DNA of 64,000 bases, taken from NCBI GenBank assembly GCA_964016885.1, contig OZ024740.1:128092001-128156000 (forward strand). Direction: 5' to 3'. A program made the position numbers and the translations under genes. The first letter of the stretch is position 1. Every line of letters begins with the position of its first letter. Shown in pieces: positions 388 through 23,900 of this stretch. This DNA comes from Eledone cirrhosa (lineage: Eukaryota). The notes beneath the pieces were generated by a model that saw only the letters and a list, made by a program, of their open reading frames with translations, was not told the origin of the DNA and searched no databases.

Positions 388-867
388 AATACTTCTTTCT
401 TTGAGCTAATTAATTGTAAAAGACTGTTTGAGTTTATAACTCTCTATATATAGTATATATATATATATATATATATATATATATATATATATATATATAT
501 ATATATATATATATGGTATATATATATATATATATATATATATATATATATATATATATATATTTACGTATATATATATATATATATATATATATATATA
601 TATATATATATATATACTATATATAGAGAGTTATAAACTCAAACAGTCTTTTACAATTAATTAGCTCAAAGAAAGAAGTATTTCTGAGCCGTGAAATACA
701 AGTTAATATAAATTAATATATATGATAAACACTAATACAATCATATAGGTGTTTGCATTGTAAATGACCAAGTTAGCTAGATTGAAAAATACTAATTAGA
801 TTAATACAGTTTGCCTGTCTCGATTTAAAATAATAAATCAATAAAAACAAACCCATATTGGCAATGA
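388..867. mobile_element. TA-embedded non-coding insert with 68-bp inverted arms (388-455 / 615-682) around a (TA)n loop
   Basis: aatacttctttctttgagc...ctctctatatatagta is the reverse complement of tactatatatagagag...gaaagaagtatt. Confidence 0.7.
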
Positions 868-910
868 TATATATATATATATATATATATATATATATAT
901 ATATATATAT

Positions 911-1829
911 ATATGAAAGACGTAAAATAAGAAAATTATAAAAATTAACTTACTTACTAAAATTTCACTCCAACTAATTAATTTCTGAAAGGGAATAAAC
1001 ATGGTTTCCGAAGGGACGCACGGAGAAATCCTTTCATCAACAGGGAAGTCTATTCTCAGTTAAGTTCCCAGGCAATGCGTGGACACAGGGAACTTATACA
1101 GGGAACTTTTTGTAAGTTAATTTAGTAAGTTAACTTAGTAAGTTAATTTTTATAATTTTTTTATTTTACGTCTTTCATATTATTGTTCTGCATCCCCTTG
1201 CATTGAACCACAAAGTTACTAAGACAAAACCTATATATTTGCTAGCATAGGTATGCATCTGTATATATATGTTTGTAGATATACTAATTCTTTATAATTA
1301 ACTCCAAATTACTTTGTTGAGCAAATATTTGCCAATACTGCTACTATAGTTCATAGTAATTGTTCGGCTGCTGTCTTCTTAACACACCACTCTTCACTGA
1401 TTAAGCTCGATATCACGTGATTGATTCTTTTGAATTTGCCACCGACGAAGTAGGCAGTGATTTTTTCAGTGTCTTGGAACTTAGTCCACGCTTTGCTTTT
1501 TTCCATCCACTGAATTATTTTTGTATAAGTTCCCTGTGTCCACGCATTGCCAGGGAACTTAACTGAGAATAGACTTCCCTGATGACGAAAGGATTTCTCC
1601 GTGCGTTCCTTCGGAAACCATGTTTATTCCCTTTCAGAAACTAATTAGTTGGAGTGAAATTTTAGTAAATAAGTTAATTTTTATAATTTTCTTATTTTAC
1701 ATCTTTCATATTATTGTTCTGCATCCCCTTGCATTGAAGCACAAAGTTACTAAGACAAAACCTATATATTTGCTAGCATAGGTATGCATCTGTATATATA
1801 TATGTTGGTAGATATACTAATTCTTTATA
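911..1829 (+). mobile_element. PLE-type/retrozyme-like non-autonomous element: ~531-bp monomer, partial tandem plus inverted arm
   Basis: 911-1100 is the reverse complement of 1522-1711; direct repeat ~1140-1296 vs ~1671-1829; (TA)n on both sides; hammerhead core inside. Confidence 0.75.
1567..1629 (+). ncRNA. candidate minimal type I hammerhead ribozyme (stem I imperfect)
   Basis: CTGATGA (1579-1585), stem II cgaaagga/ttccttcg, GAAA (1614-1617), near-palindromic ACCATGTT; the inverted copy at ~993-1055 has CTGTTGA. Confidence 0.55.
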
Positions 1830-2097
1830 TATATATATATATATATATATAAAAATATATATATATATATATATATATATATATATATATATATACGTAT
1901 ATATATATATATATATATATATATATATATATATATATATATATATATATATATATATATATATATATATATATATATATATATATATATATATATATAC
2001 ATATACATATATATACATATATATATATATATACGTATATATATATATATATATAAATATATATATATATATATATATATATATATATATATATATA

Positions 2098-2220
2098 TAA
2101 CGAAGGAAATTTGGTAAGGAACCAGGTGGACCATAACGCACCAAAGTACTCAATACTTAGGGTAGTAGAGTGGGAAATAGGAACGAGTGGGACCCCGTCG
2201 GGATCCCACTCGTTCCTATA
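2098..2220. mobile_element. short TA-embedded element ending in a 20-bp fold-back hairpin; second copy at 23728-23900
   Basis: The first ~80 bp are nearly identical to 23728-23810; arms 2177-2196 / 2200-2219. Confidence 0.8.
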
Positions 2221-2575
2221 TATATATAATTAATACAATAACAGAGATAGTTTAAAGCTAAACTCTGACTGGTATCCATCTCACTCAACAAACATTAGGT
2301 TATATTTAAATATAAACCCAATTTAAGTGTTTGGGGTGCTAACAATATGTATAATGTGGAAAAACCAGTTGTATTATTTTATGAGATATAATTAAAGTTA
2401 AAATACATCTCTCTTTCCAAACAATTGTTTCATTATAAGTTTTCTACAAGTTGGGAGAATATTTCCAGTTTATGTAGAAGCCTAATATATATTCATATAA
2501 GAATATATTTAGGTGGGCGTTTATAAATCATCAGTGGAAGCCCATTAAACTTTCATATAAGAAAGAAATTCTTAC

Positions 2576-2705
2576 CGCAGTCAAAAATCGTGTCTGTTAA
2601 GTTGCTCCTTCTGGCATCAAATGACCGCCAAATTTGAAATTCCAGCAGTTCTTGACTGAGGAAGTATCATAGCGACACGAAGCGGGAAGGGGAGACAACT
2701 ACGAT
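2576..2705 (-). other. putative non-coding (5'UTR/lncRNA) exon in a CpG-richer island
   Basis: Minus-strand acceptor tttttttcctcctttcgtAG and donor GCG|GTAAGA; all three frames contain stops. Confidence 0.35.
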
Positions 2706-3445
2706 CTACGAAAGGAGGAAAAAAATAATAATATACACGCGGGTTAATTAGTTTTTTCGAAAACATTATCAATCCAACGTGTTAAGAACTCAATTGAAAA
2801 TAAAAAAAAATAAATATATGCGTGTATAAATTACACACGCATATAGATATTTTCTTAGGCTAATATATATATATACGTATATATATATATATACATATAT
2901 ATACATATATATATATATATATATATAACCTGCTTGAACTTCTGTACCTGCTTCAGTGAAACTCCATTTACATGTAGAGTGAACTGCGCAGACTCCTTTG
3001 AAAGACATCTGCGTGTCTGTTCTGTACAGAATGAATATTACTGATTGACATAAATAAACCATAAAGTTAAATCTATCGGGGCGATTTCCTATCATTTGCA
3101 CTGAGAAAATGTACTTTTTTTATTTTTCAAAGATATGTATACATTCATATATACTACATCGTGTATCCAAAATACACTATCGGTGTATCTCTGTCTCAGT
3201 CCTATATGAAGTAAATATTGTTTAAATAATTCATACAAACCAGAAAATCAAATATCTCTGTACAAGTTCGTATCATTCGAACAAGAAAAATGTAGTTTTT
3301 TCCGTTTCATACATTTGTTTGATTGGACTAGGAAAACGCCGCCAGGATTTCAATGCTTTCTTTATATAGTTTCCTGAATATAAAATATAATTGTATCAGT
3401 TGCTCACGGATCATTCAGCAGTTATTGGTTTGATGTATTTAGATA

Positions 3446-21472: not shown

Positions 21473-21953
21473 TTATTCAGTGATTCTTTAAATACTTGAC
21501 CTCCTTTTCAACACAAGGGACATATAGAAACATATGTATATATACACACGGGCTTCTATATCGTACAGGTGTGTGTGAAAAATGCTTTACCAGTACAGCC
21601 CCCATGATGCTCTTGATTGCCTGCTTTGACTGCTTGTTTTACATGTAACAATCTTCCGCACTATAATCTTGTATAAATAGGACACGCGTGCATGACTCAC
21701 GTGTGACTGTTGCATACACTGGCTACTCCAAATTATCCTCTTGCTTTATCTTCGTAAACTGCCAATGTTTTATTTTAATTTTAATTTTAACTTTAATTTT
21801 GTCCTTTAATATGACTAATCTTTGTATGTAAATTGCCATGCTATATTATTATAATGGATATCAACCCACTGTGGGTCAATATATATATACATATGTTTCT
21901 ATATGTCTCTTGTGTTGAAAAGGAGGTAAAGTATGTAAAAAATCACTGAATAA

Positions 21954-22002
21954 TTGCTCCGAAGATCCCAAACCTCGGTTTGGAAGAAACAATTGTAAGC
22001 AA
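21954..22002 (+). ncRNA. minimal hammerhead ribozyme (CCGAAGA core variant)
   Basis: 5-bp stem I ttgct/agcaa, stem II ccaaacc/ggtttgg, palindromic stem III ACAATTGT, GUA triplet. Confidence 0.72.
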
Positions 22003-22076
22003 ATAAATGATTTAAACAGAAATTTGATTCATGTAATTTATATATATATATATATATATATATATATATATATATA

Positions 22077-23208
22077 AATTATTAAAAAAATAATGAATAA
22101 ACAAAGAAACAGTTCCTTATATTAAACAAAAAACGTTCATTATTTTACGATCGTTTCTAGGACATATATGTGTTAGAATTGGTATGCATATTCAAAAGAT
22201 CTATGTACAAAATTATACAAACTATCAGAGAGAATATACATACCTTCACATATATATGCTGTCTTCAGAAATAATGATGCTTGTTTATTGATAATAACAA
22301 CAATTCAAAATAATAGGTCTGTTTGGGAACAGATTTTGAATAGACCAATGAAATAAAGATTGAGATACATAAAAATTTATCAAGAAAATACAGTTAGGTG
22401 TGTATATATGTATGTAAATACGCTCACAGATGTGCATAAAAGTGTATGCTCATATGTATACGTATAGTGAAAAAGTGTATGTAAATATAAAATTTAGGGC
22501 TAATGTATCTGTATGTCTGTAATCAACAGACAGAATATATATATATATATATATATATCATAAGTATATGAATATTGAGGCGCTCAGATAAACACGCCCA
22601 CACACACTTACATTTAGATGCGGAAGTAAAAGAGGTAAGGGAGTATAGTAATTAGAGGAAAGTGTCAATCTCGACATACTTATAAAAATGTATCAATAAA
22701 TTAGAAATAAAAAAAAATGTTTATAGAAGGAAAAAACTCAAGAAAAGAAGACAAAAAAAGACAAAAAAGGGGGGGTGGTACGTACATACACAGACACGCA
22801 TGTCTCACAAAAGAAACATAAAAAAACATAAAAGAGAGACATAAAATATACATGGTTAAATACACACGCACATTTACACATCCATACGTTCGATATATAT
22901 GTGAAGGTATGTATATTCTCTCTGATAGTTTGTATAATTTTGTACATAGATCTTTTGAATATGCATACCAATTCTAACACATATATGTCCTAGAAACGAT
23001 CGTAAAATAATGAACTTTTTTGTTTAATATAAGGAACTGTTTCTTTGTTTATTCATTATTTTTTAATAATTTATCTTGACTCTGTTTTCCGTTTATCTTT
23101 CACCGAAAGTGATTTTTGAATGCATCTCTTCTTTTCATGATATCCGGATTACATTGAGTTCTTCATACGGATTGGACACTACCGTAAACTTTTGGTAGAT
23201 TTATCTAC
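22077..23208. mobile_element. TA-embedded fold-back element with ~180-bp arms and a degenerate hammerhead
   Basis: 22077-22257 versus ~22894-23072; TTGAATA-tgcata...tatgtccta-GAAA-cgatcgT-A-aaat at 22952-23008. Confidence 0.8.
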
Positions 23209-23229
23209 ATATATATATATATATATATA

Positions 23230-23699
23230 GCCGAAATAAATTTAGTTAAATTAAATTAAAGGAGTCATGTCCGAGACATGCGCCATATCCACTGTAGAAT
23301 AAACTCAAGGATTCCAATGAATAGATCCGACCATTTTATATCAACTAGAAATTGATTGACATATATATATATATATATATAAAATAAACACATGAAACAA
23401 TCACAGGGGATAATTTGTAAAGTCTGTAATCACATACAGCTAGGTAGGTAACAAATTAAAGTTTAACTATATCTTCAATTATTACCTTTTAAAAATTTAT
23501 TAATCCTCTTTGTATATATTTCATTACAGAAATATATTTCACTAAAAATCTGTAAAGTTATTTGAAGATCAAGTTAAACTTTAATTAGTTACCTACCTAG
23601 CTGTATGTGATTACACACTTTACAAATTATCCCCTGTGATTGTTTCATGTGTTTATTTTAAATATATATATATATGTCTATCAATGTCTAGTTGATATA
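23230..23699. mobile_element. diverged relative of 19463-20257 with a ~140-bp fold-back
   Basis: Shared agacatgcgccatatc, actagaaattgatt and gtaggtaac; 23562-23699 inverts ~23337-23478. Confidence 0.8.
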
Positions 23700-23727
23700 T
23701 ATATATATATATATATATATATATATA

Positions 23728-23900
23728 TAACGAAGGAAATGTGGTAAGGAACCAGGTGGACCATAACGCACCAAAGTACTCAATACTTGAGGTAGTAGAG
23801 TGGGTAATAGGAACCAGTAAGACCCCGATAGCTATACCCCGACAGAATTAGCCGTCGAAACGGCTTGAGCTCAGCTGTCGGGGTCTTACTGGTTCCTATA
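23728..23900. mobile_element. second copy of the 2098-2220 family, with 27-bp fold-back arms
   Basis: Arms 23807-23833 / 23873-23899. Confidence 0.8.

Follow-up and report, generated by a model that had tools for sequence, protein, structure and literature searches.

Positions 388 to 23,900 of a 64,000-nucleotide stretch of the Eledone cirrhosa genome (GCA_964016885.1, contig OZ024740.1, positions 128,092,001 to 128,156,000; the whole stretch is referred to below as the window) carry a series of inserts lying between (TA)n tracts, which raises the question of what kind of mobile element they represent. The original prediction, made from the letters alone, saw in them many independent families of non-coding retroelements with hammerhead ribozymes (retrozymes), mobilised by the enzymes of Penelope-like elements (PLEs). 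We hold with considerable confidence that PLE insertions have accumulated here in (TA)n, and that they include both truncated ends of elements bearing an open reading frame (ORF), namely J, K, D and a Neptune-type remnant, and ORF-less units (A, B, C, F, H, I and likely E), for which copying in trans by the same reverse transcriptase (RT) and GIY-YIG endonuclease is likely.

Insertions in (TA)n tracts

The inserts were lettered by position: A (915), L (2100 and 23730), B (2229), C (8143), D (10994), E (11465), F (12297), G (12934), I (19463), J (21222) and K (22077), the stub at 23230 being left without a letter; H (13355) was added to those listed originally. In the window sequence (TA)n tracts border all twelve listed inserts exactly where they had been placed, and the inverted arms and partial tandems ascribed to them are present. 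Repeat arms, inverted or in partial tandem, pair 915-1100 with 1522-1707 (96%) and 1139-1292 with 1670-1825 in A, 12297-12475 with 12559-12735 in F, 19464-19641 with 20032-20209 in I, 21388-21536 with 21890-22038 in J and 22077-22257 with 22893-23071 in K; D is a fold-back at 10994-11366 (98%), and the repeat arms of C lie at 8169-8293 and 8687-8811. The monomers of F (260 bp), C (518 bp), A (530 bp) and I (568 bp) have the predicted lengths, to which those of B (1,004 bp) and H (610 bp) can be added. The expected general lack of mutual similarity was also found: similarity between inserts is confined to three pairs, 2100/23730 (93%), I/23230 (74%) and C/617-866 (75%). As predicted, the ORF check of the window revealed no PLE-protein ORF within the inserts themselves.

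Every family is laid out in the same way, with one fixed end abutting TA (the 3' end), a ragged 5' end and, in many insertions, a second arm in inverted orientation. At least two fixed 3' ends, ~35-165 nt apart, were observed in A, C, D, E, F, G, I, J, K and L, and a single one in H. Past the first fixed end the units extend into a tail of ~35-165 nt, which in the autonomous families is pre-ORF sequence. The same combination of 5' truncation, partial tandems, inversion and a tail is given for PLEs by Craig et al. 2021 (PMC8557442), the tails being longer here. Inverted arms with TA at their borders might also recall miniature inverted-repeat transposable elements or other TA-targeting DNA transposons, an explanation to which we give next to no chance: the arms have one fixed and one variable end, they occur singly or in direct tandem, and those of J, K and D lead into RT/GIY-YIG ORFs. 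The ragged 5' ends refute it.

In the fetched loci (cited below by number, e.g. L200), which were those picked for the studied families and hence a non-random sample, 822 of 1,798 TA-flanking ends fell into 83 recurring clusters of at least three; the variety of such elements therefore exceeds what the window shows. For the lettered families the candidate hits in the 3.0-Gb genome (Table 1) are lower bounds, 39-40 being scored per family.

Coding PLE ends and ORF-less units

Comparison with the ends of ORF-bearing PLEs had been named as one way to unsettle the retrozyme interpretation. It did so for J, K and D, three of the twelve inserts, which proved to be simple truncated 3' ends of such PLEs. 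A full-length copy of the K element (L200) consists of a pseudo-long terminal repeat (pLTR), a ~830-codon RT/endonuclease frame with one stop, a long untranslated region (UTR) and a second pLTR. The same layout was found for J at L218, and J follows the endonuclease in 8/8 UTRs of its cluster. In both, (TA)n targeting was observed and the predicted hammerhead lies inside the pLTR. A single ORF with RT and C-terminal GIY-YIG, accompanied by RW-basic, DKT, CxCX5C, CxxC and CxH motifs, is present at L200 and L201 (K) and partly at L218, L220 and L207 (J), and by the motifs given in PMC8557442 (section 11) the J and K proteins are assigned to Hydra-type PLEs; they gave no significant Pfam or PDB match. 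They resemble the Hydra-clade PLEs of PMC8557442 in the order of RT and C-terminal GIY-YIG, the RW-basic, DKT and CxCX5C linker motifs, (TA)n insertion, the pLTR hammerhead, 5' truncation, inversion and tail. They differ from those described there in tail length (137-165 nt as against 30-40), in the long microsatellite-rich 3' UTR of K and in the very high copy numbers found here.

The genome-wide load of Hydra-type PLEs is very large, with at least 10 endonuclease lineages at 27-45% identity. Three other Hydra-type endonucleases were used as queries and gave ~57,000-60,000 candidates; of the 150 scored for each, 150/150 were hits with 91-100% identity and open frames of up to 872 aa, so that each of the three has at least 150 close copies with long open frames.

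D is joined to a GIY-YIG ORF (PF01541, E=2e-6) in several loci, including most of the 11 UTRs of its cluster, and belongs to an element that we take, from its motifs, to be of the Penelope/Poseidon type; no hammerhead was found in the last 1.5 kb of this element. The predicted Neptune remnant is real: its ORF pieces lie at 9574-10476 on the minus strand, an ORF at 9571-9987 contains a Neptune-type linker (C-x4-C-x2-C) before GIY-YIG, and a relative with 82% identity matches RVT_1 (E=5e-5). The emphasis laid on Neptune was nevertheless misplaced, since the ORF-bearing elements at the inserts are mostly of the Hydra type.

At dispersed loci the monomers of A, B, C, F, H and I follow one another directly, head to tail. 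Arrays reach at least five copies in A (whose two fixed 3' ends are 116 nt apart) and at least eight in C, and copies of C, like those of H, are 98-99% identical to one another. No ORF longer than 100 aa and no meaningful match to the compared PLE proteins was detected in the units of these six families or of E, and in a set of 171 ORF-linked UTRs (21 clusters) none of the seven forms the 3' end. Two cases of adjacency proved to be neighbouring insertions. Loci fetched for other families contained 33 incidental copies from A, B, C, F and I, none of which was seen to enter a PLE ORF. Because the ORF-less units have their anatomy in common with PLEs, it is likely that PLE RT and GIY-YIG endonuclease copy A, B, C, F, H and I in trans, and E is probably a unit of the same kind.

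It has to be considered whether all the inserts could instead be truncated autonomous PLEs, the tandems being pLTR-only arrays generated by local unequal crossing-over. Truncation indeed holds for J, K, D and the Neptune remnant, some arrays contain near-identical neighbours, and local amplification from pLTRs has been proposed (bioRxiv 10.64898/2026.07.22.740005). However, junctions between tandem monomers were found again and again, at dozens of scattered loci that all show the same fixed 3' ends at TA, and neither the incidental copies (0/33) nor the 171 UTRs provide a link to a PLE ORF, which makes this explanation improbable. Two points nevertheless count against copying in trans. No driver with sequence homology to the ORF-less units was found, within a set of 21 UTR clusters that is small beside the ~57,000-60,000 endonuclease candidates; moreover, local duplication would also yield near-identical neighbours, and the long A arrays are mosaic. 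Since the sample of 171 UTRs is so small relative to these candidates, an autonomous partner may exist. In Xenopus, 24 of 57 families matched Repbase elements, nearly all of them PLE ends (bioRxiv 10.64898/2026.07.22.740005), whereas here homology to the pLTR of a driver was not found.

Among known systems, the units recall Chlamys MRC1 (PMC8557442), with its non-autonomous PLE units, pLTRs and multicopy head-to-tail insertions. As described in that source, however, the Chlamys elements generally have their 3' sequence in common with an autonomous family and lack canonical hammerheads; the present units are from an animal, TA-targeted and hammerhead-bearing. Like the non-LTR retrozymes of animals, which have been proposed to be non-autonomous PLE derivatives (PMC7229834; bioRxiv 10.64898/2026.07.22.740005), they are ORF-less tandems of a few hundred bases with one type I hammerhead per monomer. 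Unlike them, they lie scattered in (TA)n as 1.2-2.5-mers that have inverted arms and the tails of PLEs, and they show core variants and a stem II of 20-104 nt in place of the canonical 4-bp stem II.

Hammerhead motifs and the RNA template

Our own descriptor predicts a complete type I hammerhead in eight inserts of the window (A, B, C, E, H, I, J and K), and in each case the motif is on the strand that has the fixed end at its 3' terminus. The motifs of G and L are interrupted in the window copies and complete in other copies of these families; none was found in the window inserts F and D. Among whole-insert shuffles, 0-1 of 40 per insert reached the observed score. Between 66 and 89% of the family copies passed the descriptor (Table 1), as against 0/800 shuffles of the family hammerhead regions. 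The descriptor was widened to allow long stems II and III after the sequences had been viewed, and weight is therefore carried by diverged relatives: one of B (75% identity) keeps the core with altered stems, one of H (80% identity) has a U3-A8 core and a covarying stem II, and diverged G-type motifs retain the core while their stems differ.

At least six minimal hammerheads, mostly with a palindromic stem III, had been predicted. The motifs found are mostly elaborate, not minimal, with a stem II of 20-104 nt across the window; A, B, E, G, J and K have a short, palindromic stem III, whereas that of C, H and I is long and stable. A mismatch frequently replaces G10.1-C11.1. Strict or minimal descriptors missed most of the motifs, J alone passing. 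At the gathering score Rfam detected no hammerhead in the window, its sole hits being two tRNA-like copies, and at E<=10 it detected none in the C and I stretches. In folding, C, I and K regain most helices of the hammerhead (z -3.7 to -4.7), namely stems I and III in I and stems I and II in K. The type I topology, the short palindromic stem III and the U3-A8 core covariation are features in common with the minimal PLE hammerheads of PMC4209133, and the palindromic stem III of A, B, E, G, J and K suggests dimer activity as reported there. The far longer stem II, the long stem III of C, H and I and the frequent mismatch instead of G10.1-C11.1 distinguish the present motifs from those in that source.

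Several observations argue against active ribozymes. The lowest-energy fold of the A monomer is a competing, non-hammerhead structure, the cores of J (U4-to-C) and H (U3 opposite G8) are changed, and the predicted cleavage site of A and B is U-U; in addition, eight of nine tested retrozyme dimers remained uncleaved (bioRxiv 10.64898/2026.07.22.740005). The motif of A may also be read as a hammerhead without stem II, which agrees with the lowest-energy fold; we tentatively prefer the long-stem-II reading because it combines a palindromic stem III with a distance of 57 nt to the fixed end, as in other families.

None of the 5' ends coincides with the hammerhead cleavage site in A (0/63) or C (0/25), and therefore reverse transcription appears usually to cross this site, which fits circles or uncleaved multimers; in I a weak pile-up was observed there (7/65 within 270-290, p=0.013). 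Adjacent monomers are less divergent than copies from different loci in A (2.6 vs 4.5%), C (1.0 vs 1.6%) and I (2.2 vs 3.7%) and have derived differences in common, which would fit rolling-circle copying of the hammerhead units, though local duplication would leave an identical trace; in F they are no closer (4.7 vs 3.7%), and B was excluded from the comparison because its internal repeat was paired. Circular monomers are compatible with these data. In the mechanism we propose, the PLE endonuclease would nick (TA)n and reverse transcription would begin at a fixed point downstream of the hammerhead. It would usually pass the cleavage site, which implies a circular or an uncleaved multimeric RNA as template, and fold-backs would arise if the opposite strand were primed a second time. 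Multimeric transcripts would be cut into monomers by the predicted hammerheads.

It is highly improbable that all the inserts are non-coding retrozymes that have minimal, dimer-acting hammerheads and move via circular monomers. Six or seven families are indeed ORF-less tandems, stem III is palindromic in A, B, E and G (as well as in J and K), and the neighbouring monomers of A, C and I have derived differences in common. However, J, K and D are ORF-linked and F lacks a hammerhead, all four contradicting such a view, while stem II is long throughout and stem III is long in C, H and I. From the original prediction there remain many independent ORF-less tandem families with conserved hammerheads, fold-backs and partial tandems of PLE type, (TA)n targeting and abundant PLE enzymes; what has to be given up is the inclusion of J, K and D, and of F, whose tRNA-like module had been overlooked.

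Table 1. Features of the inserts in the window. Hits: candidate hits of the family in the genome. Passing: family copies that passed the hammerhead descriptor. HH, predicted hammerhead.
Feature	Position	Strand	Description	Hits	Passing
M	389..866		65-bp perfect inverted arms (389-453, 617-681) round a TA tract; 617-866 is a 75% relative of the C 3' end
A	915..1825	+	ORF-less 530-bp unit: inverted arm 915-1100 and 1.3 monomers	3,376	45/56
A HH	1579..1650	+	canonical core, 51-nt stem II, palindromic stem III; degenerate copy 972-1043 (-)
L stub	2100..2216	+	L-family fold-back; ends inside or after its own hammerhead	277
B	2229..2862	-	5'-truncated copy of ORF-less 1,004-bp tandem unit	3,260	16/18
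B HH	2534-2420	-	96-nt stem II
C	8064..8811	+	ORF-less 518-bp unit; 29-bp inverted arms round TA at 5' junction	1,115	16/20
C HH	8528-8639	+	63-nt stem III
Neptune-type PLE remnant	8835..10955	-	broken RT/linker/GIY-YIG pieces 9574-10476 and flanking pLTR-like sequence
D	10994..11405		fold-back of 3' end of ORF-bearing PLE (presumed Penelope/Poseidon type)	373
E	11465..12068	-	3' end and inverted tail of ORF-less ~1.7-2.1 kb unit; one tandem junction seen	3,639	19/27
E HH	11569-11520	-
F	12297..12899	-	ORF-less 260-bp unit: 1.7 monomers and inverted arm	2,766
F tRNA-like module	12395..12467	-	A and B boxes intact; ARAGORN Ser-GGA; short variable arm; second copy 12655-12727
G	12934..13270		fold-back of short family, copies ending at ~270-290 bp; window copy broken within hammerhead	1,525	38/43
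H	13355..13850	-	ORF-less 610-bp tandem unit	1,825	17/24
H HH	13704-13582	-	76-nt stem II, 34-nt stem III
I	19463..20258	-	ORF-less 568-bp unit	3,178	46/59
I HH	19820-19744	-	U3-A8 core variant, 9-bp stem I, 8-bp stem III
J	21222..22038		fold-back of pLTR of ORF-bearing PLE (Hydra type by motifs)	3,118	19/29
J HH	21959-21997; 21467-21429	+; -	fixed U4-to-C core change
K	22077..23208		fold-back of pLTR of ORF-bearing PLE (Hydra type by motifs); full-length copies L200, L201	3,952	26/35
K HH	22268-22146	-	104-nt stem II
Stub	23230..23661		fold-back, 74% similar to the I 3' end; stops short of hammerhead
L stub	23730..23896	+	only 3' half of hammerhead; whole motif in longer family copies

Some further features of the window were recorded. 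The 29-bp perfect inverted arm at C (8064-8171, flanking the TA tract) lies outside the C monomer and may be copied flank. Many arms of the G copies at L360-L382 end at 271-290 bp, which suggests a defined 5' end without a tandem junction. A short stub of another TA-targeting family (13 loci) lies at 19256-19437, and one of its relatives stands behind a Hydra-type endonuclease (L136). A PLE-type hammerhead that is compact and has a perfect core lies at 29600-29627 (+); sequence related to it is present at 44193-44356 and in L003. A degenerate non-LTR retrotransposon with endonuclease and RT fragments (23925-27137, -) stops at a TA tract and has a related 3' fragment at 14361-14907, and a partial U2 small nuclear RNA-like match at 7046-7103 (+) stays under the Rfam gathering score (E=4e-4).

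Family F and its tRNA-like module

Family F differs from non-LTR retrozymes in being without a ribozyme: even with the widest descriptor, only 2 of 94 doubled monomers reached the threshold, which is the level of shuffles. On its sense strand it carries a tRNA-like module detected by both Rfam and ARAGORN, with A and B boxes conserved in 139 copies. Many F copies extend beyond the tRNA start into tandems. Among the 5' ends lying beyond the query, 13 of 33 (11 loci) stop in a 12-nt window at the tRNA start (p=7e-5), in a sample selected on the 3' part and with the window fixed after the first batch had been seen. A separately fetched set provided nine further ends at positions 167-174, and the pooled ends number 24 in 8 nt against ~5 per 10 nt, under mixed sampling. 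This pile-up points to a real RNA 5' end, which would be set by polymerase III initiation or by RNase P.

Other data weigh against this interpretation. The 10 newly fetched ends taken alone gave 3/10 (p=0.11), and the second set gave 9/39 (p=0.048) with unrecognised tandem junctions still counted among the ends. A run of at least five T follows the tRNA in 171 of ~180 matches and would stop polymerase III unless read through, which favours read-through or a different route, and a possible effect of the hairpin weighs against both polymerase III and RNase P as the origin of the pile-up. The tRNA-like part might be merely a passive passenger, with the pile-up arising from the behaviour of reverse transcriptase at a long hairpin. 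In favour of this, the module lies within an extended hairpin reaching ~10 nt upstream of the pile-up, a second pile-up (monomer positions 101-108) consists of fold-backs at a palindrome, the T run is conserved, and the A and B boxes are barely more conserved than the whole module (0.95 vs 0.94). On the other hand, the pile-up is sharp and lies on the hairpin's far side, and what its ends are joined to differs (TA, tail and inverted arms of differing length); we regard the passenger explanation as possible but rather doubtful. RNase Z was rejected as the source of the second pile-up, those ends lying inside the acceptor stem at the palindrome.

Neither a LINE (long interspersed element)-derived tail nor a LINE-type target duplication was found in F, the copies of which end in the PLE manner, in (TA)n, with tail and inversions. 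Judged from its sequence, F is likely a SINE-like element (SINE, short interspersed element) moved by a PLE. A fuller proposal, which could as easily be right as wrong, is that F is a tRNA-headed SINE with a PLE driver instead of a LINE, its tRNA module assuming the RNA-end role of the hammerhead, and that it would be one among dozens of families of PLE parasites with long-stem hammerheads eluding standard descriptors.

Diverged F monomers (78-88%) form arrays of ~8-12, with alternating variants, at L402 and L403, which are possible old source arrays. Two abundant short interspersed repeat families with tRNA-derived-looking heads are also present in the window (3422-3652, 7269-7504, 7586-7910, 17588-17892 and 27243-27652); similarity to F was not noted.

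In the literature searched, with most subscription journals and Repbase beyond reach, there was no description of a PLE-mobilised tRNA element. The closest parallels are partial. Schistosome SM-alpha (PMC6765202) is also a tandem unit with a polymerase III promoter (in F, a predicted one), but according to that source it has a hammerhead, whereas F has none and the 5' ends of its copies pile up at the tRNA start. A promoter derived from a small RNA in a non-autonomous retroelement is likewise known from TRIMp3 (Helenus, Ajax and Cassandra; Kojima 2024, PMC10886601) and from tRNA-derived SINEs; these rely on LTR retrotransposons or LINEs, whereas F ends in the PLE manner in (TA)n. Animal retrozymes as non-autonomous PLE derivatives, non-autonomous tandem PLEs and (TA)n targeting have already been published; the hammerhead units described here add new members, whose predicted ribozymes are unusual in their long stems, and what stands out is family F.

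The route of PLE transposition and the role of the hammerhead are standing questions on which this genome bears, and an in vitro system has been called for by Craig et al. 2021 (PMC8557442). The units offer short, young, high-copy substrates (98-99% identity in C and H) for which the fixed ends and the distribution of 5' ends have been mapped and cleavage sites predicted, alongside intact-looking drivers. The hammerhead units and the tRNA-bearing F together would provide a built-in test of circular versus linear templates, and of whether cleavage and circularisation matter. Long-stem hammerheads imply that descriptor-based ribozyme counts are too low in such genomes and, if true, a tRNA-headed element moved by PLEs would extend the partnerships of SINEs beyond LINEs.

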